A stretch of 64,000 nucleotides of DNA from Escherichia phage vB_EcoM_C2-3. The stretch is from sequence record OK076929.1; one strand, 5' to 3'. Positions within the stretch are counted from its first letter, which is position 1. The number at the start of each line of letters is the position of its first letter. This document shows positions 11,935-28,645 of the stretch, in pieces. The translations under genes were made by a program, and so were the position numbers. The notes under the pieces were generated by a model that worked only from the letters and a program-made list of their open reading frames with translations, searched no databases and was not told the origin of the DNA.

Positions 11935-12116
11935 GTCTGAGTAAAGAACAAAAAGATAAATTGTTTGAGCTTATCCATGAACTTCTAGATGAGCATACAG
12001 AAGCAAACACCTTTTATGATGAATACGGCCCGCTATCTCCCGAACAGCAAGAAGAATTTGCTGATCGGTTTGATAAGAAAGAAAACGAATTAATAGCTTA
12101 TGTGAATATGCTTTAA
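11931..12116 (+). CDS. hypothetical protein (61 aa)
   Basis: ORF track; acidic small protein. Confidence 0.45.
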   Translation: MSLSKEQKDKLFELIHELLDEHTEANTFYDEYGPLSPEQQEEFADRFDKKENELIAYVNML

Positions 12117-12125
12117 GAAGGTGAT

Positions 12126-12707
12126 ATGGCGAGTTTAATTTTTACTTACGCAGCAATGAATGCTGGAAAATCTGCTTCTCTTTTGACTGCTGCACATAAT
12201 TATAAAGAACGCGGAATGGGTGTATTAGTTCTTAAGCCTGCTATTGATACTCGCGATTCTGTCTGTGAAGTCGTTTCTCGCATTGGAATTAAGCAGGAAG
12301 CGAATATTATTACGGATGATATGGATATTTTTGAGTTCTATAAATGGGCTGAAGCACAAAAAGATATTCATTGTGTATTTGTAGATGAAGCTCAGTTTTT
12401 AAAAACTGAACAGGTGCATCAATTAAGTCGAATTGTTGATACATATAATGTTCCTGTTATGGCTTATGGGCTAAGGACTGATTTCGCTGGAAAATTATTT
12501 GAAGGTTCTAAAGAACTTTTGGCGATTGCAGATAAACTTATTGAACTAAAGGCAGTTTGTCATTGTGGTAAAAAAGCTATTATGACAGCTCGATTAATGG
12601 AAGATGGAACACCAGTTAAAGAAGGTAATCAAATCTGTATTGGTGATGAAATTTATGTTTCTTTGTGTAGAAAACATTGGAATGAATTAACTAAAAAGCT
12701 CGGTTAG
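12126..12707 (+). CDS. tk: thymidine kinase
   Basis: 193 aa, P-loop MNAGKSAS, recognised as T4 Tk. Confidence 0.9.
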   Translation: MASLIFTYAAMNAGKSASLLTAAHNYKERGMGVLVLKPAIDTRDSVCEVVSRIGIKQEANIITDDMDIFEFYKWAEAQKDIHCVFVDEAQFLKTEQVHQLSRIVDTYNVPVMAYGLRTDFAGKLFEGSKELLAIADKLIELKAVCHCGKKAIMTARLMEDGTPVKEGNQICIGDEIYVSLCRKHWNELTKKLG

Positions 12708-15753: not shown

Positions 15754-16215
15754 ATGATTATTAATGAAAACTCTTGGCACTATAAATTATTCAAACTGTT
15801 TAACGACGAATGGAAACGACCTAAGACACTGTGTGCATACTTTTGGTCTATTGTTATCCCTACATTTTTCGTTTCTTTTTTCGGATGTACTATACTCGCA
15901 GGTCTAACTATTATCTGTGCAGAAATCATACAGAAATGGCTTATTTTTGGTAGTTTATGGACTCTTATTCCATCAGCATTTATACTTGCCATTTTGCTTA
16001 TTTTACTTATTATTGGTTCATTTGTTATTCCTGCACAACTGCATGAAAAATATAAAGATTATAAATGGAAAAAGGATTATGCTTTACATGTAGAAAATAT
16101 TGATAGGGCGTATAAAGGTTTACCTCCTATTCAACCCAAGAAATCTATTATCGTCGAATTTTTAAAAGCGCGTAAAGCTAAAGTATGTCCTGTTATTGAA
16201 TATAAGGCTGAATGA
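15754..16215 (+). CDS. hypothetical membrane protein (153 aa)
   Basis: Two long hydrophobic segments; ATGA overlap with downstream gene. Confidence 0.5.
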   Translation: MIINENSWHYKLFKLFNDEWKRPKTLCAYFWSIVIPTFFVSFFGCTILAGLTIICAEIIQKWLIFGSLWTLIPSAFILAILLILLIIGSFVIPAQLHEKYKDYKWKKDYALHVENIDRAYKGLPPIQPKKSIIVEFLKARKAKVCPVIEYKAE

Positions 16216-17225
16216 TGAAAACAGTAATGAAAAGCTATTTTGGTAGTCATCTTTATGGAACTTCTACCCCAGAATCTGATGTAGATTTTAAAGAAATCTT
16301 TGTTCCTCCTGCTCGTGATATTCTTATTGGAAATGTTAAAGAGCACATGAGTAAAAACACTAACAACACATCATCTAAAAACACTAAAGATGATATTGAC
16401 CATGAACTATACAGTCTTAAATATTTCTTTAAATTAGCAGCAGATGGTGAAACTGTAGCGTTAGATATGCTTCACACTCCACCTGAACTAGTGGTTAAAT
16501 CTGATTTGCCTGATGTGTGGAAGTTTATTCAAGACAACCGTTCTCGTTTTTATACGACTAACATGAAATCATATTTAGGATATGTCCGCAAGCAAGCTTC
16601 TAAATACGGCGTCAAGGGTTCTCGTTTGGCTGCATTACGTGATGTATTGAAAGTAGTTAATCAAATCCCTGAGCAATGGGTTGATTACCAAGAAGACGGT
16701 TCCATTAAGCAGCGTCGTACTAAAGTTGAAGATATTAAGCATCGTCTTCCAGAAAACGAATTCTGTGAATGGGTGTTCCATAATCATGAGAAAACAGGCC
16801 CACAAACGTTCTACACTGTGTTGGGTCGTAAATATCAGACAACGCTTTCTCTTATTGAGCTTAAGCAGTCACTGAACAAATTAGATGCTGAATACGGTGA
16901 ACGTGCTCGTAAGGCCGAAGCCAATGAAGGTATTGACTGGAAAGCTCTGAGTCATGCTTGCCGTGGTGGACTCCAACTATTGGAAATTTACAAAACTGGT
17001 GACTTAGTCTATCCACTCAAAGATGCTCCATTTATTCTCGACGTGAAGTTGGGTAAGCATCCATTTAAAACAGTTCAAGAGTTTTTGGAAGATGTGGTCG
17101 ATCAAGTAGAAGCAGCATCTACTGAAGCTTCTAAGAACGGTATGCAGCAAAAAGTGGACATGGGTTTTTGGGATGACTTCCTTGAGAAGGTCTATCTTGA
17201 AAACCACCGAAGTTATTATAAATGA
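16212..17225 (+). CDS. nucleotidyltransferase-fold protein (Pol-beta-like NTase motif)
   Basis: hG[GS]x(9-13)DhD pattern: FGSHLYGTSTPESDVDF near N-terminus; 337 aa. Confidence 0.5.
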   Translation: MMKTVMKSYFGSHLYGTSTPESDVDFKEIFVPPARDILIGNVKEHMSKNTNNTSSKNTKDDIDHELYSLKYFFKLAADGETVALDMLHTPPELVVKSDLPDVWKFIQDNRSRFYTTNMKSYLGYVRKQASKYGVKGSRLAALRDVLKVVNQIPEQWVDYQEDGSIKQRRTKVEDIKHRLPENEFCEWVFHNHEKTGPQTFYTVLGRKYQTTLSLIELKQSLNKLDAEYGERARKAEANEGIDWKALSHACRGGLQLLEIYKTGDLVYPLKDAPFILDVKLGKHPFKTVQEFLEDVVDQVEAASTEASKNGMQQKVDMGFWDDFLEKVYLENHRSYYK

Positions 17226-17226
17226 T

Positions 17227-17257
17227 AGGGAGCCTTCGGGCTCCATTTTTTTTTTTA
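17227..17257 (+). terminator. intrinsic terminator (gggagcc-ttcg-ggctcc + T10)
   Basis: UUCG-loop hairpin followed by ten T. Confidence 0.7.
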
Positions 17258-17280
17258 TTTCAAAAATTTTTCACAAAACT

Positions 17281-17310
17281 GTTTACAAACATAAAGCTTT
17301 ATGGTACTAT
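17281..17310 (+). promoter_or_regulatory. early promoter
   Basis: gtttac 17281-17286, tggtactatacaactatc cassette. Confidence 0.5.
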
Positions 17311-17346
17311 ACAACTATCAAAACAAACACTTAAACGGAAAACAAA

Positions 17347-17496
17347 ATGAAAATTACACCAATTGAAGTAAAAAAGTTGATTGATACAGAAGAAATTTCA
17401 GAGTGTTTTGAAAGTTTCTTAGAAGACGCAACTGAAGATAACGCGGTTTATCTCGCCCAGAAAATTATCGAAACTTATTTGGAGAAGAATCAATGA
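17347..17496 (+). CDS. hypothetical small acidic protein (49 aa)
   Basis: Small ORF, ATGA-coupled to downstream ORF. Confidence 0.35.
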   Translation: MKITPIEVKKLIDTEEISECFESFLEDATEDNAVYLAQKIIETYLEKNQ

Positions 17497-17756
17497 CAGT
17501 TTACGTAGATGTTTTAATGAATCATGGATGGAAACTTCGCGGTCATCCAACTAAAAATTGTCATATGTTCACTGATGGAGATATTGAAGAGCTTCACGAA
17601 ATGGCAGAAGCAATAGGAATGAAACGTTCTTGGTTTCAAGATAAACGCATTAAACATTATGACTTACACGCTCGGCGACGCCAAAAAGCTGTAGAACTTG
17701 GAGCTGTAGAAGTATCTCGTCGCGAAGCAGTAAAAATTTGGCAAACATTAAAATAA
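17493..17756 (+). CDS. hypothetical protein (87 aa)
   Basis: ORF track. Confidence 0.5.
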   Translation: MTVYVDVLMNHGWKLRGHPTKNCHMFTDGDIEELHEMAEAIGMKRSWFQDKRIKHYDLHARRRQKAVELGAVEVSRREAVKIWQTLK

Positions 17757-17759
17757 ATT

Positions 17760-17789
17760 GTTTACAGAAGGGTAGTAGTGTGATACTAT
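17760..17789 (+). promoter_or_regulatory. early promoter
   Basis: gtttac 17760-17765, tactat -10. Confidence 0.45.
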
Positions 17790-17825
17790 TACCCTATCAA
17801 AACAAATGTGAAATTGGAGAATAAA

Positions 17826-18794
17826 ATGAAAACTGTAACTATCAATAAGGGTATCTACTTCGGTAAAGAAATCTCTGGAACTTTTGAGCTCTTAGGCGAA
17901 TGGTTCCCAGATAATGCTCCGGTAGATGCACAAGGAGATGGTAAAGTTTTTGTTGAAATTGACGGTAAACGTCGCGGTGTTTGGGTTTACAAATCAGACA
18001 TTTCATATGATGGTGTAAAAGTTGAAGAAGTTAAAGAATCATATGAAGATATGAAAACCCGCATTAATAAAAGATTTAATGTTATGGGAATGATGACGAA
18101 TGGTATTATTAACGGAAACATTCGTTCATTAATTATCTCGGGAGCAGCAGGTATTGGTAAAACGTATTCTTTAGATAAAGCTTTAAATAAAGCAAATGAT
18201 ATTGGATACATTGAATATAAAAGCATTAACGGTAAAATCTCTGGTATCGGTCTTTATGAACAGCTCTGGAATAATCGTGAAGAGAATTCTGTCCTTTTGA
18301 TTGATGATGTGGATGTTTTCTCTGATATGGACATTCTTAATCTTCTGAAAGCTGCTCTGGACACTGGAGAGACCCGTAAAGTCTGCTGGAGCACTGCATC
18401 TTCTTACTTAGAAGAAAAAGGCATTGAGCGTGAGTTTGAATTTAAAGGAACGATTGTTTTTATCACAAACGTTGACATTGACCGCGAATTAGACCGTGGT
18501 ACTAAACTTGCTCCACATTTACAAGCATTAGTGTCCCGCTCGGTTTATTTGGATTTGGGTGTTCACACTAATGAAGAAATTATGGTCAGGGTTGAAGATG
18601 TTATTCTTTCAACTGACATGATGCAAAAGCGCGGTCTTTCTGATGAAGAAACTTATAAAGCATTATCATGGATGAAAGTCAATGTTAACCGTTTACGCAA
18701 TGTTTCACTGCGTACTGCACTTTATCTTGCTGACTTTATTATGACCGACAAAAACGGTTGGCAAGAAATCGCTGAGGTTACTCTTCTGAAATAA
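17826..18794 (+). CDS. P-loop ATPase (Walker A SGAAGIGKT, Walker B LLIDDVD)
   Basis: Start moved to ATG 17826 after GGAG; Walker A and B motifs in central domain. Confidence 0.55.
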   Translation: MKTVTINKGIYFGKEISGTFELLGEWFPDNAPVDAQGDGKVFVEIDGKRRGVWVYKSDISYDGVKVEEVKESYEDMKTRINKRFNVMGMMTNGIINGNIRSLIISGAAGIGKTYSLDKALNKANDIGYIEYKSINGKISGIGLYEQLWNNREENSVLLIDDVDVFSDMDILNLLKAALDTGETRKVCWSTASSYLEEKGIEREFEFKGTIVFITNVDIDRELDRGTKLAPHLQALVSRSVYLDLGVHTNEEIMVRVEDVILSTDMMQKRGLSDEETYKALSWMKVNVNRLRNVSLRTALYLADFIMTDKNGWQEIAEVTLLK

Positions 18795-19200: not shown

Positions 19201-19230
19201 GTTTACAAGACTGTTCCTCTGTGGTACTAT
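19201..19230 (+). promoter_or_regulatory. early promoter (repeat cassette)
   Basis: gtttacaagactgttcctctgtggtactatacaactatcaact identical to the 45896 copy. Confidence 0.55.
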
Positions 19231-19258: not shown

Positions 19259-19786
19259 ATGAACGCTAAAGATATTTTCAACCTGGTAAATTACAACGAT
19301 GGTAAATTTAAATCTGAAGCACAAAGCAAGTTCTTTAATGACATCTCAATCGGAGGTGAAATCACGGTTGATGGAGGACAAATTTACAAATCCCGTTGGA
19401 ATTGGATTGTTATTATCGATGAGATTGGTATTGTAGAAATTTACAAGAATACGAATAAAAATCGTACATTACACTGGTCTCGTGATACTAACGAACAGTA
19501 CAAAAAGGATAAAGCATCTAAGTTATCTCGTGTAACTCAAGAAGATATTGAGTTCATCAAGAAAGATATTTTGATGTATGATAACTTAATTGCTGAAGAG
19601 CAAGCTGTTATTGATAAATTTGATGAGATTAAAGCTTCTCGTGAAATTCCTGATTTTATGAAAGAATCAGTAAATGAACGATACTCTCTCATTTCAGAGC
19701 GTATTGAAACTTACAAAAAGCAAAGAGCTGAACGCCAGAATACTCTTCGGAAGTTTGAAGAACGGTTAAAGACGGTACTCGCATAA
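19259..19786 (+). CDS. hypothetical protein (175 aa)
   Basis: ORF track; GGAGG SD. Confidence 0.55.
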   Translation: MNAKDIFNLVNYNDGKFKSEAQSKFFNDISIGGEITVDGGQIYKSRWNWIVIIDEIGIVEIYKNTNKNRTLHWSRDTNEQYKKDKASKLSRVTQEDIEFIKKDILMYDNLIAEEQAVIDKFDEIKASREIPDFMKESVNERYSLISERIETYKKQRAERQNTLRKFEERLKTVLA

Positions 19787-19841: not shown

Positions 19842-20249
19842 ATGAAACAGTTGATAATTAAAAGATTGAATTTATTGATATGTTGTTTATGTATAGCAAT
19901 TGCATATGGTTATTACGCAATTAATGATTATATGCATTATAAAGATTATGATGTTACTGTAGTTAATACCCTTACAGGAACTCAAGGAAAGGGGTCTAGT
20001 TTATCGTTTATTGCCGTATATGAACTCAAAGACGGTTATAGATTTAGTGAATATATTTCACCAGAGATGTATTCATCAATAGAAAAAGGCGATAATATTA
20101 CTGTAAGTTTACGTCCTTTCGACGTAAAACAGACATTGTTTGATAATATTGTTTGGTTCTTTGGAATGGTATTAGTTCAATCTGTGTGTGGTGCTTATAT
20201 AGTCTGTTCCATCTTATTCTGTATATTTAGTAAAATTGAAATTGAGTGA
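19842..20249 (+). CDS. hypothetical membrane protein (135 aa)
   Basis: N- and C-terminal hydrophobic helices. Confidence 0.5.
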   Translation: MKQLIIKRLNLLICCLCIAIAYGYYAINDYMHYKDYDVTVVNTLTGTQGKGSSLSFIAVYELKDGYRFSEYISPEMYSSIEKGDNITVSLRPFDVKQTLFDNIVWFFGMVLVQSVCGAYIVCSILFCIFSKIEIE

Positions 20250-20256
20250 GGAAAAT

Positions 20257-21144
20257 ATGTCAGTAGTAATTAATAATGTCAATGCAGTAATTAAATCTTT
20301 AGTTAATAAAAAATTAAATGAATGGACTGTACTTCGTCGTGGAGAGCCAGATAAATTTTTTCATAGATTTAACCCAACTTTGGATTTGAATGTTATTGAC
20401 AGAGATGTTCATGCTGAAATTTTAGATAAATTTAAAGTTGATATTGGGTTTGGGTTAGATAAACATTTGCAACGAACAAACGGATCTGGAATGGGTTTAT
20501 CTAATCGCATCATGAAAGCCCTTAATAAAATTGGAGCGTTGTCTCGTATTAATGCGAGTGAAATCCTTCGCAATTATAATAAAGGATATGACCTTTATGG
20601 TCGACTAATGCCGAAATTATCATTTGACCAAATGATTGCGGATTTGTGGGAAAATCAACGACGATTATTAGCATTAGGCGCTCGATTAGCTAAAGGTCTA
20701 GATAAACAAATGATTTTTAAGACCAATAATACAGAAGACCTTAAATGCTTTAAATTTAGTACTCGTGGAGATGATTATTACATCAGAGCTCGCTCTACAG
20801 ATTATGTTAATATGGGGCATCATCTCTGTTTAGCTTTTGAAGTTTTAAAAGAAGCCGGAACATTAGAATATGTGTCTGGTGCTAAATGTCCGATTGGTTC
20901 AAATTGCATTTTAATTTATCGCCCAGATGAATCCAGTTCAACTAAATTACCTACAAAACCTGTACCAGTTCGCAGTAATGAAAAACATTCTGAACAAATT
21001 GCTTATTTTAATAAGCAGATTGAAGAGCTAAATATTTCTATTCAGCAATATGATGATGAAATTTTCAGACTATCTGGATTGAGTAGTAAAGCTAAATCTG
21101 AGCGTGAAAAATTAATTAAAATTGTCGATTTACTTAAATCTTAA
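20257..21144 (+). CDS. hypothetical protein with C-terminal coiled coil (about 295 aa)
   Basis: Start moved to ATG after GAGGAAAA; first of four consecutive coiled-coil-tailed ORFs. Confidence 0.5.
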   Translation: MSVVINNVNAVIKSLVNKKLNEWTVLRRGEPDKFFHRFNPTLDLNVIDRDVHAEILDKFKVDIGFGLDKHLQRTNGSGMGLSNRIMKALNKIGALSRINASEILRNYNKGYDLYGRLMPKLSFDQMIADLWENQRRLLALGARLAKGLDKQMIFKTNNTEDLKCFKFSTRGDDYYIRARSTDYVNMGHHLCLAFEVLKEAGTLEYVSGAKCPIGSNCILIYRPDESSSTKLPTKPVPVRSNEKHSEQIAYFNKQIEELNISIQQYDDEIFRLSGLSSKAKSEREKLIKIVDLLKS

Positions 21145-21152
21145 GGAACACC

Positions 21153-22175
21153 ATGAAAACTCGTTCTCAAATTGAAGATATGGTTCGTAATGCCAGCTAT
21201 ACTCGTGATGTTATGACATTTTTGTGTGAAAATAATTTAGACCCTGATAAAGTTAATCGTGTTATTCATCACTTTAAGTATACGAATAGCAGCGAATGGG
21301 TGCGTAATTTTAGTAAAGCAGGGTATATTACACAAATGACTGCTCGTGAACAGCTCACCGATTTCTGTAAAACTATTGATTATAAAAATCCTTTGATTGT
21401 TCAAGGCGTTGGTCAAAGTAAGGTTGATTTATCATCTGGATTTTTCAATCCAAATCATTATCGTATTGAATGGAGATTTATTGCTCTGTTCCGTAGACAA
21501 TTAAAGCAAATTTTGTCTACTGCTAGTCGATTAAAAGGCTCTGATATTAACTTAAAGAATCTGAAATTTGATGGTTATACTCTTCAGATGGAAGTAAGAC
21601 CGTTAAAAGAAAATAATAGAACTGCACGAATTAGCTTTAAGCCTAATACTAAAAATTCTCTTTCAATTTGTGAATGTCTTAAATCACAGCTGACAGAAGC
21701 ATTTAAGTATATGGATGTTGTTGCTGCTGTTCAATCTAAGATTTTACCTCGTTTTGAGCGAAATTGGGAACATACAACAACATATGAACTTGATATGATC
21801 GTTTCATTTAAATACGATTTTTTGAGAAAGGACGAAGTCCCGCAAGAGAAAAAGCAGGAAGTGCAAGATATCTTAAATTTATCCAATTACTCATCAAACG
21901 ATCCTAAATTTTGGATGTATAGCTCAAGCAATATAGATGCATGTAAACTTAATAAAGTGAGTTTTCTTCCTACTGAAAATTCAAATTTTAAACCTGTAGA
22001 AAAATGGCACGCTGACGCGATTGAGAAGTCTCTTAAGGCAGTAGATGATGAACTCGTTAAAGCGACCAATGAAGTGCTAGAAGCTGAAAAGGCGTTAGAA
22101 CAAGCTCAGTCAAGGGTTCAAAATCTGACAAAGCAACGTTCTAAACTGAACAATGCACTAAATGCACTGAACTAG
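21153..22175 (+). CDS. hypothetical protein with C-terminal coiled coil (340 aa)
   Basis: ORF track; C-terminal heptad-rich tail. Confidence 0.55.
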   Translation: MKTRSQIEDMVRNASYTRDVMTFLCENNLDPDKVNRVIHHFKYTNSSEWVRNFSKAGYITQMTAREQLTDFCKTIDYKNPLIVQGVGQSKVDLSSGFFNPNHYRIEWRFIALFRRQLKQILSTASRLKGSDINLKNLKFDGYTLQMEVRPLKENNRTARISFKPNTKNSLSICECLKSQLTEAFKYMDVVAAVQSKILPRFERNWEHTTTYELDMIVSFKYDFLRKDEVPQEKKQEVQDILNLSNYSSNDPKFWMYSSSNIDACKLNKVSFLPTENSNFKPVEKWHADAIEKSLKAVDDELVKATNEVLEAEKALEQAQSRVQNLTKQRSKLNNALNALN

Positions 22176-22204
22176 TTTACTTTGCCACAAGGATGTGGTA
22201 TAAT
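22175..22204 (+). promoter_or_regulatory. early promoter
   Basis: gtttac 22175-22180, 18 bp, tataat 22199-22204. Confidence 0.5.
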
Positions 22205-22232
22205 GTTTTTACTTTCTACTGAGGAGATTATT

Positions 22233-23234
22233 ATGACTCGTAACGAATATATCAAATCATTCAATAGCGTTATTGATGATAAAGCTATACCGATGTTTGG
22301 CCAAAATAGCGTTCTTTCTATTATCAATCAATGGCTCAATAGTGTTGATGCAAGTATTGTTTCTTCTACTAAATTTATTCATGAAATTCGTAAAATTTCT
22401 AGCCGTGTAGATAAAGATGTTATCAAGAAAACCTTTAAAGAGTCTCGTCTTCTTTCATATTTGGTTAATCGGGATATTCTTGGTAATTTTGGGAAAGAAA
22501 TTAAACGAACCAAAGATGTAGTAGGATATAATTGGTTCGGTGATGTTAATTCTTATCATCTTAATAATAAAGAAGACCCTGAGAATATTTTTACTCGTCG
22601 TTGGATTAGTAATTTTAGACTTTTCAAAGGACAGATTCTAAAATCAGCTTCTAAATTATGTTATGGCGATTATCGTCAAATTCATCCTTTGGCTTCTGAT
22701 ATGATTATCATAAAAGAATATGAACTTGATAAAAATAAAGTATCTATTTTTGTGAATTATGGATTTTTTACACCAGAAACTAACCAAAAGAATATTAATA
22801 AATTTTTCTCAATTGCTAGCACTATAACTCGTCAATTAGAGACCGCATTACTTTGTATGGAAACAGTAGAAAATATTCATACATATCCTTTTAAGAATAT
22901 ATGCGGTTGGGAAGGATATAAACTCGTAATTAGCCTTCGTGAAGTGAAATGTGCTTATTCACCTACTGATAAAGAAATTTACCAACAAAAATGTGATGAA
23001 ATTGTGAATACTCCTAAAGAAGAAACTACCCTTGAGGAACTAATGGAATGTCTTGATGATTCACCTGAACCGATAGAAATTCGTCCAGAAGTTATTGCAC
23101 TAGAAAAAGCTTATAAAGAAGTTCTAGAAATTTCTAATAAAGCGCAGAAAGAATATGAGCAGGCTAAAAGGATTTGGGAAGAATCTGTTAATCGTCTTGA
23201 TCGTCTGGAACAAGCTTTACAGTTAATTAAGTAA
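22233..23234 (+). CDS. hypothetical protein with C-terminal coiled coil (about 333 aa)
   Basis: Start moved to ATG 22233 after GAGGAG and downstream of promoter. Confidence 0.5.
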   Translation: MTRNEYIKSFNSVIDDKAIPMFGQNSVLSIINQWLNSVDASIVSSTKFIHEIRKISSRVDKDVIKKTFKESRLLSYLVNRDILGNFGKEIKRTKDVVGYNWFGDVNSYHLNNKEDPENIFTRRWISNFRLFKGQILKSASKLCYGDYRQIHPLASDMIIIKEYELDKNKVSIFVNYGFFTPETNQKNINKFFSIASTITRQLETALLCMETVENIHTYPFKNICGWEGYKLVISLREVKCAYSPTDKEIYQQKCDEIVNTPKEETTLEELMECLDDSPEPIEIRPEVIALEKAYKEVLEISNKAQKEYEQAKRIWEESVNRLDRLEQALQLIK

Positions 23235-23286
23235 TTTAAAGCCAAGGATGGCTCGGAGTATAAATCATTAACCAAGTGAGAAGAAC

Positions 23287-24213
23287 ATGAAAACTCGTAA
23301 ACATTATATTGATTATTTTGACAGTCTTATTACTAAACATCGTAATTATCAAATCGGACACAGAGCAGTAATCAATAATATTCTTCGTGATTTTTTAGAC
23401 TATATTGGATGGGAAAACCATATTTGTAAAGATACACAAAATGCGTATTCACATTCTCTTGGTTCTTTGCTCGAGTGGTTCAAACGTTCCCGATTACTAT
23501 CTTCTGTGATAGCTGTTAATAATGTTAAAAAATTTATGTATCCAAGCTACATTAAGACTAATGTATCAAATGCTAGTGTTGTTACATTTAATATTATTAA
23601 CGACGTGAAAAGAACTTATTTAGAAGAATGGTTTTCTAAAGATAGTAAAGAAAAATTTGCTAGTGAATTTTCACACGAATTCAATAATAACGTGAATATG
23701 CTTTTTAAGCATTCTCGTAGACTGTTTTGTCATGGTGATAACCGTACTATTAATGTGAATGTAAAAGACTGGGTTACGGCTAAATTCACTCCATCGTCCC
23801 AGAATGGACAATTTGAATTGTCAATTATCGTTTGCGCTCCGCATGAGATATATAAAAATCTTCCGTATATGAAACCACGCGAAGCTAATAAACACAATGA
23901 AACTATTAGTTCTTTGGCTTATAATTTGCGCGTGTTATTATCTGATATGGATGTAGTCAAATCCTTTGATGATAATACGAATTATGGTCTTTCACTGTTT
24001 GAAACTAAATTTGTTATTAAATTAAAGGACCCTAGTGAATTTAAACCTACACCAAAATCCAATCATGGAAATGATACTATGAAAGAAGAACGCGAATATC
24101 TCAGTGCCCGTTTGATTGAAGTTGAAAAACAGATTGAAGAGCATACTAAAGTTCTTAAGGCTTTAACCGCCAAAGCAAATGGTTTACGTAATGCTATTGA
24201 GGTATTGAAATGA
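23287..24213 (+). CDS. hypothetical protein with C-terminal coiled coil (308 aa)
   Basis: ORF track; N-terminus MKTR as in 21153 ORF. Confidence 0.55.
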   Translation: MKTRKHYIDYFDSLITKHRNYQIGHRAVINNILRDFLDYIGWENHICKDTQNAYSHSLGSLLEWFKRSRLLSSVIAVNNVKKFMYPSYIKTNVSNASVVTFNIINDVKRTYLEEWFSKDSKEKFASEFSHEFNNNVNMLFKHSRRLFCHGDNRTINVNVKDWVTAKFTPSSQNGQFELSIIVCAPHEIYKNLPYMKPREANKHNETISSLAYNLRVLLSDMDVVKSFDDNTNYGLSLFETKFVIKLKDPSEFKPTPKSNHGNDTMKEEREYLSARLIEVEKQIEEHTKVLKALTAKANGLRNAIEVLK

Positions 24214-24599
24214 AAAAGCGTTTATTAGAAGACATTGCAGCTTCAAGTAATTCCAGTTTAATTAAAATTATTATGGCTGGTGAGGAAGATGATATGGAAA
24301 TGCGTGGAAAGATTCACGGCTGCGACGATTTAGATTTTAAACCTCCAGCATGGGATGCTATTATGGCTATGGTTGAACGACGTGAAAGAGCTTCTAAAAA
24401 CGTTCCTAATTGCCCTGAATGCGGTACTGAACAAGTTCAATTGATTAACTGGCGTAAACCAGAGCTTGAATATAAATGCCGTCAATGTAAACATAAATTC
24501 AGTAAGCATGCTCCGGAAATGGTTAAATTGCCTGACTCTACTGAGTTCTTTAAAGAACTTGTGAGTGTTCAACCAATGCCTAATAATATTTTGGATTAA
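24210..24599 (+). CDS. hypothetical zinc-ribbon protein (129 aa)
   Basis: CPECG ... CRQCKHKF four-cysteine motif. Confidence 0.5.
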
Positions 24600-24601
24600 A
24601 A

Positions 24602-24845: not shown

Positions 24846-25109
24846 ATGTTTAAAGTATATGGTTATGATAGCAACATCCACAAATGCGTGTATTGCGATA
24901 ATGCAAAACGTCTTTTGACCGTGAAGAAACAGCCGTTTGAATTTATCAACATTATGCCGGAAAAAGGTGTTTTTGATGATGAGAAAATCGCTGAGCTTCT
25001 GACTAAACTAGGTCGTGATACTCAAATCGGCTTAACAATGCCTCAGGTATTTGCTCCTGATGGAAGTCATATTGGTGGATTTGACCAACTGCGAGAATAT
25101 TTTAAATGA
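24846..25109 (+). CDS. nrdC: thioredoxin/glutaredoxin NrdC
   Basis: 87 aa, CVYC redox motif, recognised as T4 NrdC. Confidence 0.85.
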   Translation: MFKVYGYDSNIHKCVYCDNAKRLLTVKKQPFEFINIMPEKGVFDDEKIAELLTKLGRDTQIGLTMPQVFAPDGSHIGGFDQLREYFK

Positions 25110-26357: not shown

Positions 26358-26831
26358 ATGTTATTGACTGGCAAATTATACAAAGAAGAAAAACAAAAAT
26401 TTTATAATGCACAAAACGGTAAATGCTTAATTTGCCAACGAGAACTAAATCCTGATGTTCAAGCTAATCACCTCGACCATGACCATGAATTAAATGGACC
26501 AAAAGCAGGAAAGGTACGTGGATTGCTTTGTAATCTATGCAATGCCGCAGAAGGTCAAATGAAGCATAAATTTAATCGTTCTGGCTTAAAGGGACAAGGT
26601 GTTGATTATCTTGAATGGTTAGAAAATTTACTTACTTATTTAAAATCCGATTACACCCAAAATAATATTCACCCTAACTTTGTTGGAGATAAATCAAAGG
26701 AATTTTCTCGTTTAGGAAAAGAGGAAATGATGGCCGAGATGCTTCAAAGAGGATTTGAATATAATGAATCTGACACTAAAACACAATTAATAGCTTCATT
26801 TAAGAAGCAGCTTAGAAAGAGTTTAAAATGA
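26358..26831 (+). CDS. 49: endonuclease VII (Holliday junction resolvase)
   Basis: 157 aa, recognised as T4 gp49; Cys-rich zinc site CLICQ ... HDHE. Confidence 0.9.
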   Translation: MLLTGKLYKEEKQKFYNAQNGKCLICQRELNPDVQANHLDHDHELNGPKAGKVRGLLCNLCNAAEGQMKHKFNRSGLKGQGVDYLEWLENLLTYLKSDYTQNNIHPNFVGDKSKEFSRLGKEEMMAEMLQRGFEYNESDTKTQLIASFKKQLRKSLK

Positions 26832-28645
26832 CAATTGAAAAAGAAATTGAAGGATTGATTCATAAAACTAATAAAGACCTTTTAAACGAGAATGCTAATA
26901 AAGATTCTCGTGTTTTTCCAACTCAACGGGACCTTATGGCTGGTATTGTGTCTAAACACATTGCCAAAAATATGGTCCCGTCTTTTATTATGAAAGCGCA
27001 TGAAAGCGGAATTATTCATTTCCATGATATTGATTATTCCCCTGCTCTTCCATTTACTAATTGTTGTTTAGTAGATTTAAAAGGAATGCTTGAAAACGGA
27101 TTTAAGCTTGGTAATGCGCAGATTGAAACTCCTAAATCAATTGGCGTTGCTACTGCAATTATGGCACAAATTACTGCACAGGTTGCTTCTCACCAATACG
27201 GCGGAACGACTTTTGCTAATGTAGATAAAGTACTTTCTCCTTATGTTAAACGCACCTATGCAAAACATATTGAGGATGCAGAAAAATGGCAAATCGCCGA
27301 TGCACTGAATTATGCCCAATCTAAAACAGAAAAAGACGTATACGATGCATTCCAAGCTTATGAATATGAAGTAAATACTCTCTTTAGTTCAAACGGACAG
27401 ACTCCTTTTGTAACAATTACATTTGGTACAGGAACTGACTGGACTGAACGAATGATTCAGAAAGCAATTTTGAAAAATCGTATTAAAGGTCTTGGTCGTG
27501 ATGGGATAACTCCTATTTTCCCTAAACTTGTTATGTTCGTTGAAGAAGGTGTTAACCTTTATAAAGACGACCCGAACTATGATATTAAGCAGCTTGCTCT
27601 AGAGTGTGCAAGCAAAAGGATGTATCCTGATATTATTTCAGTTAAGAACAATAAAGCTATCACCGGTTCATCTATTCCTGTTTCTCCAATGGGTTGTCGT
27701 AGTTTCTTGAGTGTATGGAAAGATTCGACTGGTAATGAAATTCTTGATGGACGTAATAATCTTGGTGTTGTAACACTGAATCTTCCTCGTATTGCGTTGG
27801 ATTCTTATATTGGAACACAGTTCAATGAACAGAAATTTACTGAATTGTTCAATGAGCGAATGGATTTATGTTTTGAAGCTTTGATGTGTAGAATTAGTTC
27901 CTTAAAAGGAGTTAAAGCGACTGTTGCTCCTATTCTTTACCAAGAAGGTGCATTCGGGGTTCGTCTTAAACCTGATGACGATATAATTGAGTTATTTAAA
28001 AATGGTAGAAGTTCAGTGTCTTTAGGATACATTGGTATTCACGAATTGAATATTCTTGTCGGTCGTGATATTGGACGAGAAATTTTAACTAAAATGAATG
28101 CTCATCTTAAACAGTGGACTGAAAGAACTGGATTTGCTTTTAGTTTATATTCGACTCCTGCTGAAAACCTTTGTTATCGCTTCTGTAAACTTGATACAGA
28201 AAAATATGGAAGTGTAAAGGATGTTACTGATAAAGGCTGGTACACTAATAGTTTCCATGTTTCAGTAGAAGAAAATATTACTCCGTTTGAAAAGATTTCT
28301 CGTGAAGCCCCATATCATTTCATTGCGACAGGTGGTCACATTTCTTATGTTGAACTTCCTGATATGAAAAATAACCTAAAAGGTCTTGAGGCTGTCTGGG
28401 ATTATGCTGCACAACATTTAGATTATTTTGGTGTTAACATGCCAGTAGATAAATGTTTTACGTGTGGAAGTACCCATGAAATGACTCCTACTGAAAACGG
28501 ATTTGTTTGTTCTATTTGTGGAGAAACTGACCCTAAAAAGATGAACACAATAAGAAGAACATGCGGATATCTTGGAACTCCTAGCGCTGTCCCATGGAAT
28601 TTAGGTAAAATGAAAGAAATGGTAAAACGAGTAAAACATGCATAG
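26828..28645 (+). CDS. nrdD: anaerobic ribonucleoside-triphosphate reductase NrdD (uninterrupted)
   Basis: 605 aa continuous ORF; C-terminal zinc ribbon CFTCG...CSICG and glycyl radical motif RTCGYLG. Confidence 0.95.
   Translation: MTIEKEIEGLIHKTNKDLLNENANKDSRVFPTQRDLMAGIVSKHIAKNMVPSFIMKAHESGIIHFHDIDYSPALPFTNCCLVDLKGMLENGFKLGNAQIETPKSIGVATAIMAQITAQVASHQYGGTTFANVDKVLSPYVKRTYAKHIEDAEKWQIADALNYAQSKTEKDVYDAFQAYEYEVNTLFSSNGQTPFVTITFGTGTDWTERMIQKAILKNRIKGLGRDGITPIFPKLVMFVEEGVNLYKDDPNYDIKQLALECASKRMYPDIISVKNNKAITGSSIPVSPMGCRSFLSVWKDSTGNEILDGRNNLGVVTLNLPRIALDSYIGTQFNEQKFTELFNERMDLCFEALMCRISSLKGVKATVAPILYQEGAFGVRLKPDDDIIELFKNGRSSVSLGYIGIHELNILVGRDIGREILTKMNAHLKQWTERTGFAFSLYSTPAENLCYRFCKLDTEKYGSVKDVTDKGWYTNSFHVSVEENITPFEKISREAPYHFIATGGHISYVELPDMKNNLKGLEAVWDYAAQHLDYFGVNMPVDKCFTCGSTHEMTPTENGFVCSICGETDPKKMNTIRRTCGYLGTPSAVPWNLGKMKEMVKRVKHA

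Follow-up and report, generated by a model that had tools for sequence, protein, structure and literature searches.

The closest described counterpart of the genes considered here is nrdC.5 of phage T4, a published antagonist of the bacterial defense protein Dsr1. Dsr1 is a SIR2 NADase, the sensor domain of which is shared with Avs7 and recognizes phage major capsid proteins (PMC13581612). An experimentally evolved T4 clone with large deletions no longer plated on ECOR17; its plating was restored by deletion of dsr1 from the host and, on MG1655 carrying dsr1 from ECOR17, by plasmid-encoded T4 nrdC.5 (Srikant, Guegler and Laub 2022, PMC9391042). The same paper terms nrdC.5 an early gene. The present analysis concerns four consecutive genes, A to D, in a stretch of 64,000 nucleotides from Escherichia phage vB_EcoM_C2-3 (OK076929.1; hereafter the window), the second of which is the ortholog of nrdC.5. 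On balance, they probably form a tandem array of paralogs from a single Straboviridae-specific family, in which homo-oligomerizing tails would carry host-target-binding heads and NrdC.5 would act against Dsr1.

A second point of comparison is DSAD1, an anti-DSR2 protein of SPbeta-like Bacillus phages that, like NrdC.5, neutralizes a SIR2-type NADase defense. DSAD1 binds the sensor region and competes with the structural-protein trigger, which may serve as a working model for NrdC.5 and Dsr1. The triggers differ, in that DSR2 senses the tail tube protein and Dsr1 the major capsid protein (PMC13581612). DSAD1 and NrdC.5 were found to be unrelated in sequence and, as far as seen, in fold, and the two are likened here solely by their presumed action. 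The T4 dmd-tifA-adfA “anti-TA island” and the loci for the internal proteins IPI/IPIII also resemble the array in being clustered, non-essential, early or injected, variable among T-even phages, and determinants of host range. However, these loci harbor unrelated genes, whereas NrdC.3–6 appear to be paralogs of one fold with a common coiled-coil tail.

The array is not a new kind of system, as it consists of long-annotated T4 ORFs (open reading frames), including one published counter-defense gene. The eLife 2022 study tested nrdC.5 only and did not deal with paralogy, a head-linker-tail architecture, or mechanism. Relative to the searched literature and databases, three features appear to be new: the grouping of NrdC.3, NrdC.4, NrdC.5, and probably NrdC.6 in one superfamily; their common design of head, linker, and coiled coil, in which the C-terminal motif is conserved; and the reach of the family across Straboviridae as single-copy genes. 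A literature search found no later work on nrdC.3–6 or on the anti-Dsr1 mechanism.

Gene identities and relationships

The window is a segment of a Tequatrovirus (T4-like phage) genome. Positions 20000-24600 are 99% identical to Tequatrovirus phages such as vB_EcoM_G29, with 508 phage records matched, and the array is present, with allelic variation, in the majority of the phage collection's roughly 500 Tequatrovirus genomes. The initial annotation had listed four ORFs of similar size; all four are present where it placed them, lie on the plus strand, and agree with the T4 annotation, their order being syntenic with T4 nrdC.6, nrdC.5, nrdC.4, and nrdC.3. Lengths are in amino acids (aa).

20257..21144, + strand: gene A, nrdC.6 ortholog, 295 aa; phrog_2257, Pfam PF26899; probable distant superfamily member
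21153..22175, + strand: gene B, nrdC.5 ortholog, 340 aa; Pfam DUF7235/PF23882, phrog_2351
22233..23234, + strand: gene C, nrdC.4 ortholog, 333 aa; phrog_1435
23287..24213, + strand: gene D, nrdC.3 ortholog, 308 aa; phrog_1435, Pfam PF26897

B is 94% identical to T4 NrdC.5 (NP_049703) over 340 aa, with equal length and matching position. A is 97% identical to T4 nrdC.6 over the first 258 aa, and C and D are 99% and 92% identical to T4 nrdC.4 and nrdC.3, respectively. B covers the complete DUF7235 (PF23882) model, positions 1-307 of 307, at 407.6 bits (cutoff 30; E = 5e-122), whereas A, C, and D fall below the gathering cutoff of this model, the tail of D alone reaching E = 0.16. A matches phrog_2257 over positions 1-303 of 303 (E = 3.3e-152), and its PF26899 label is a precomputed assignment on homologs. 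C and D match the whole profile of phrog_1435 (E = 2e-168 and 1.8e-100, respectively). Pfam and PHROGs thus split NrdC.3–6 into three families. A search with a hidden Markov model (HMM) of the C/D family found no further copy in the 64-kb window.

This division conceals a relationship that pairwise comparison scarcely detects. The pairwise alignments proposed in the initial annotation were nearly silent, BLASTP linking only C with D (E = 0.001), which also share phrog_1435. Profile comparison, in contrast, joins B to C and D: hhalign aligns the NrdC.5 family with the NrdC.4/3 family at a probability of 96% and E = 2e-9 (B 50-191 to C 65-213). The central core and tail of T4 NrdC.5 are also found in C and D, while A, C, and D belong to other Pfam or PHROG families. 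The best non-self matches of the C/D-family HMM are B-family proteins, with head and tail colinear. On the basis of these profiles, B, C, and D are certainly paralogs. Their joint alignment, drawn from three genera, retains as invariant residues only M1, T3, R4, F71, K135, L332, and A335. B and D begin with MKTR, as first remarked from the sequence, and C with MTR. Because T3 and R4 are invariant across the B, C, and D families, the MKTR start is a conserved family feature.

The placement of A is less direct. Its family aligns with the B/C/D profile at E = 2.9e-5 (probability 74%) and with a broader profile at E = 1.8e-5 locally and 2.8e-7 globally (probability 78-89%), the alignment spanning a common core of helix, helix, beta-hairpin, and helix. 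The AlphaFold2 model of A (predicted local distance difference test, pLDDT, 76.8; predicted template modeling score, pTM, 0.66) retrieves, by Foldseek, full-length matches to uncharacterized Straboviridae proteins of 300-370 aa (E = 7e-6 to 9e-4). Among these full-length matches are gp080 of Klebsiella phage Mineola (Mineola_080) and gp122 of Acinetobacter phage Acj9 (Acj9p122), with template modeling (TM) scores of about 0.43-0.45.

Both of these proteins are relatives of B/C/D. Mineola gp080 matches the B/C/D profile at a probability of 96-98% (E = 3e-9 to 3e-12). The Acinetobacter phage proteins, as a three-sequence alignment, match at a probability of 79-91% (E = 1.6e-5 local, 1.2e-7 global), a link that appears only with this alignment, as Acj9p122 as a single sequence gives no significant match. 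A is therefore linked structurally to B/C/D through proteins that match the B/C/D profile. Mineola gp080 and the Acinetobacter phage proteins Acj9 gp122, Morttis gp118, and KARL-1 gp164 are 325-335 aa long, directly adjoin nrdC or nrdC.2 in the same genomic slot, and have a heptad tail ending in L..[AST][IM]..L. They differ from the array in being single-copy and less than 20% identical to its members. Mineola_081 and the similarly sized Acj9p126, p074, p067, p124, and p088 were considered and found to be unrelated.

An alternative is that A is unrelated to B, C, and D, leaving only these three as paralogs, and that its tail became similar by convergence. This account draws on the failure of BLASTP and HMM-to-sequence searches to join A to the others, on hhalign probabilities of only 74-89%, and on the lack of an M(K)TR N-terminus in A. 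It does not readily explain the colinear alignment across the common core, the full-length matches of the A model to Mineola_080 and Acj9p122, or the fact that A has the terminal motif, register, and genomic slot of the other three. Convergence is thus unlikely, and A is probably a further paralog.

The family is very narrow. Tequatrovirus carries four copies, Mosigvirus three (A, B, and D types), Dhakavirus/Gaprivervirus three (A, B, and C types), and Jiaodavirus and the Acinetobacter phages one each; the presence/absence variation anticipated between related phages is thus seen as copy numbers of one, three, and four between genera. When 1.84 billion cluster representatives were searched exhaustively by HMMER with the B/C/D profile, 16 matched, 7 of them over full or near-full length; a word-indexed protein search returned close relatives only, and a viral-contig scan with the C/D alignment found only 8 loci. 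So small a family does not allow deep alignments. The PDB, searched by sequence, contained neither a solved relative nor an NrdC.5-Dsr1 complex, and a BFVD search with the model of B (pLDDT 46) was uninformative outside its own family.

The C-terminal coiled-coil tails

Each of the four proteins has a head of 250-280 aa, a short linker, and a C-terminal helix of 42-55 aa. The head is a fast-evolving, probably alpha/beta domain, the linker is disordered and rich in proline, lysine, and glutamate, and the tail is an amphipathic heptad helix that extends to the last residue.

20977..21141, + strand: coiled-coil tail of A, aa 241-295; helices 241-271 and 277-294 with an SGLSS kink between them; ends KLIKIVDLLKS
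22005..22172, + strand: coiled-coil tail of B, aa 285-340; ends KLNNALNALN
23085..23231, + strand: coiled-coil tail of C, aa 285-333; ends RLEQALQLIK
24085..24210, + strand: coiled-coil tail of D, aa 267-308

The heptad-like character attributed to these segments from the sequence alone is borne out by several lines of evidence. In all four proteins, the 28-residue window with the highest heptad score falls in the C-terminal tail, and composition-preserving shuffles match this score in 1, 0, 5, and 14 of 300 cases for A, B, C, and D, respectively. In family alignments of the last 49 residues, conserved hydrophobic columns show a 3.5-residue periodicity, the power of which is matched by 7, 1, 0, and 47 of 2000 permutations (A to D). 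In the AlphaFold2 predictions, the C-terminal region of A forms two helices (241-271 and 277-294; pLDDT about 70-88) and that of B forms one (285-339; pLDDT 67-82); these are the best-scoring parts of models that are otherwise moderate (A) or poor (B).

All four tails finish in identical register. The ending L..[AITSV][LIVM]..[LIV][KNS][KS]?, a pattern drawn up post hoc with the data already seen, occurs at the C-terminus of 4 of the 135 plus-strand ORFs of the window, which are exactly A to D (0.05 matches in shuffled tails). It recurs in homologs from Mosigvirus, Dhakavirus/Gaprivervirus, Klebsiella Jiaodavirus, and Acinetobacter phages.

Among orthologs, conservation is generally higher in the tail than in the head. 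Identities are 56-71% in the tail versus 33-45% in the head for the A family, 60-64% versus 30-51% for the C family, and 82-93% versus 53-84% for the D family. In the B family, two of four comparisons reverse this trend (P0052, head 85% and tail 71%; P0212, head 29% and tail 22%). Between paralogs, the tails are only 9-37% identical. As the tails are family-specific yet more constrained than the heads, each paralog would form its own homo-oligomer.

A different arrangement, in which the four tails cross-pair to form a single hetero-oligomeric complex with one function, would fit tails that are alike in register and terminal motif and genes that are adjacent and probably co-expressed early. It is quite unlikely, given that tail identity drops from 56-93% within a family to 9-37% between paralogs and that related phages manage with three copies or one. 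Natural variants are also found without single members (the T4 nrdC.6 tail, nrdC.4 in L009, and C in P0056), and nrdC.5 alone suffices for plating on Dsr1 cells (PMC9391042).

A charged helical tail is also present in the nearby NrdC.8 (19259-19786, 175 aa), which ends …YKKQRAERQNTLRKFEERLKTVLA and is highly conserved across genera. NrdC.8 was considered as a fifth member and rejected, as hhalign aligns it to the NrdC.3–6 family at E = 0.04-0.36.

Evolutionary pattern and surrounding sequence

The array genes evolve 2-5 times faster than their neighbors. In comparison with six other Tequatrovirus loci, the ratio of nonsynonymous to synonymous substitution rates (dN/dS) is 0.14-0.30 for B, 0.12-0.31 for C, 0.07-0.35 for D, and 0-0.16 for A, versus 0-0.1 for the flanking nrdC.11,.10,.9,.8, nrdC, and gp49. 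These ratios suggest that the faster evolution is relaxed or partly diversifying. In Tequatrovirus NrdC.5, variation is located at residues 1-60 and 180-280, with the shared core at 60-180 being nearly invariant.

NrdC.3 occurs in two allele classes that are about 61% identical, one comprising about 140 records (≥90% identity) and the other 313 (60-80%); the divergence between classes amounts to a dN of about 0.31 and a dS of about 1. The adjacent zinc-ribbon gene nrdC.2 also has deeply diverged alleles, with 62-83% aa identity (61% for NrdC.3) and a dS of about 1. These classes (window 23287-24599) are observed in Tequatrovirus genomes that are otherwise 92-99% identical, suggesting cassette-like replacement by recombination.

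Decay and rearrangement of array genes are found in several genomes. The nrdC.6 gene of the T4 reference (NC_000866) has a 1-nt deletion (GAGCT-GATATT versus GAGCTAAATATT; window 20980-21144 compared with T4 12060-12235), and the resulting frameshift leaves a protein of 275 aa from which the tail is gone. The 295-aa form is kept in another T4 record (KJ477686) and in nearly all other Tequatrovirus phages; the frameshift reflects either mutation in a laboratory strain or an error in the old sequencing. Split genes are seen in one IMG/VR genome (L009), where nrdC.4 is affected, and in SP18, where it is the nrdC.5-like gene. In a 167-kb contig (P0056), the middle of NrdC.5 is fused to the C-terminal two-thirds of NrdC.3 at an NKV/NNV microhomology, with nrdC.4 deleted, and NrdC.6 of Shigella phage Sf25 (P0092) has an internal tandem duplication of 83 residues. 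The fusion and the duplication point to recombination within the array.

The array is located in an early accessory block between nrdC.11/nrdC.10 on one side and the thioredoxin gene nrdC on the other. Three promoter-like sites lie upstream of it or in its gaps.

19202-19230: T4-early-type promoter-like site upstream of the array
22176..22204, + strand: T4-early-type promoter-like site in the B-C gap; GTTTAC, 17 nt, TGgTATAAT; consensus match only
23235..23264, + strand: weaker promoter-like site in the C-D gap; TTTAAA, 18 nt, TATAAA; read by eye, not called by the scan

Downstream of the site in the B-C gap come a GAGGAG ribosome-binding site and the ATG at 22233. A GCCA(C)AAGGATG spacer motif and the promoter-like layout are common to the gaps that precede nrdC.4 (22176-22232) and nrdC.3 (23235-23286), suggesting joint duplication of a gene with its promoter. 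On the basis of these early-type sites and of the eLife paper on nrdC.5, the genes appear to be expressed early.

Several features of the surrounding sequence were observed alongside the array. In the region 16212-18794, NrdC.11 matches the RlaP nucleotidyltransferase family (PF10127), and NrdC.10, a P-loop protein, has weak matches of the AAA and STAND types. Klebsiella phage Mineola and Acinetobacter phage Acj9 have conserved copies of both, NrdC.10 is also found in Morttis, and a dN/dS of 0.01-0.2 indicates strong purifying selection on the two genes. Immediately 3′ of nrdC.11 (17229-17244) is a strong terminator-like hairpin, GGAGCCTTCGGGCTCC with a T-run after it, and an early-promoter-like site is found beyond it (17282-17310). 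Between nrdC.11 and nrdC.10, at 17493-17756, is a gene for an 87-aa DUF4031 protein; as it is found in this phage and two related loci but not in T4 or in three further Tequatrovirus loci, it represents a presence/absence polymorphism. On the other side of the array, nrdD (26828-28645) is one uninterrupted ORF of 605 aa. In the T4 reference, a group I intron with I-TevII interrupts nrdD, and mobC lies beside nrdG; the nrdD intron with I-TevII and mobC appear to be absent from this phage.

Proposed mechanism and meaning

The four genes are probably early, non-essential, and accessory; their raised dN/dS and their decay in several phages speak for dispensability. The suggestion that they have an anti-defense role is sustained for B, which is the 94%-identical ortholog of the published anti-Dsr1 gene (PMC9391042); the activity is known for the T4 allele, from which B differs at about 6% of residues. 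It is hypothesized that the head of NrdC.5 binds Dsr1, probably at its capsid-protein sensor, before late proteins appear, and that this binding would block either trigger recognition or NADase activation. Given its apparent early expression, NrdC.5 would precede the late capsid trigger of Dsr1. The tail may make each paralog a homo-oligomer, affording avidity for oligomeric immune proteins, while the remaining three heads may be directed at different targets in the host, whether immune or otherwise involved in host interaction. In this way, host range would be broadened by duplication and by divergence of the heads.

The heads are more likely to be stoichiometric binders than enzymes, as catalytic-type residues are missing from the invariant positions and enzyme-domain matches were not obtained: no D, E, H, C, or S residue is among the B/C/D invariants, and Pfam, NCBIfam, and PADLOC searches with the four proteins gave no enzyme or defense matches, only generic coiled-coil noise. 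The sole PADLOC match is a 12-bit, coiled-coil-type match between the tail of C and BrxC.

Alternatively, the genes may serve phage physiology, such as nucleotide metabolism or the regulation of host macromolecular synthesis, instead of counter-defense. Their position between nrdC and nrdC.10/11 would suit such a role, as would the name “thioredoxin” that many GenBank records give to these genes. However, no thioredoxin or glutaredoxin Pfam model matches any of the four proteins, whereas the true NrdC (24846-25109) matches PF00462; the label is thus an artifact of the gene names. Evolved T4 clones also remained viable after losing the genes, with a phenotype confined to one host (PMC9391042), and the family is very narrow (16 of 1.84 billion cluster representatives) and decaying in several phages. 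A purely physiological role is therefore very unlikely. It is scarcely credible that the tails are alike merely as charged, helix-prone, low-complexity segments with no functional coiled coil: weak matches to generic coiled-coil families in Pfam, NCBIfam, and PADLOC and the modest periodicity of D (47/2000) could be so explained, but shuffles of the same composition seldom reach the heptad scores, hydrophobic a/d columns are kept across genera, and tails are better conserved than heads within families, with the B-family exceptions.

Several points weigh against the proposal of a counter-defense paralog array with oligomerizing tails and target-binding heads. The functional evidence is limited to NrdC.5 and is genetic. 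Gene-wide dN/dS is below 1 in all four genes, and positive selection is thus not demonstrated. NrdC.6 is 95-99% conserved within Tequatrovirus, a poorer fit to an arms-race target, and its membership is based on moderate probabilities (74-89%). The heptad scores are home-made and do not come from a validated predictor such as Marcoil or DeepCoil, and the AlphaFold2 model of B, built from a mixed B/C/D alignment, is poor (pLDDT 46). The initial annotation had proposed a diversifying paralog family. Its paralogy is upheld by the profiles, and the faster-evolving heads, raised dN/dS, copy-number variation, and NrdC.3 alleles agree with diversification in a weaker sense.

About half of the genes of T4, the reference lytic phage, are without known function. 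If they are paralogs of the only known Dsr1 inhibitor, nrdC.3, nrdC.4, and nrdC.6 become three testable candidate immune antagonists, and the combination of a conserved oligomerizing tail with a variable head lends itself to head-swap and tail-deletion constructs. The finding helps to explain differences in host range among T-even phages and is relevant to the choice and engineering of therapeutic phages. A broader and more doubtful possibility is that NrdC.3–6 constitute a modular counter-defense platform across Straboviridae, in which a family-specific coiled-coil tail would oligomerize a rapidly diversifying head and each paralog or allele class would neutralize a different immune sensor, Dsr1 being the first example. 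If so, NrdC.3, NrdC.4, and NrdC.6 would each inhibit a defense system that has no known inhibitor, and the host range of T-even phages would be determined directly by gene duplication, the swapping of NrdC.3 alleles, and gene loss.

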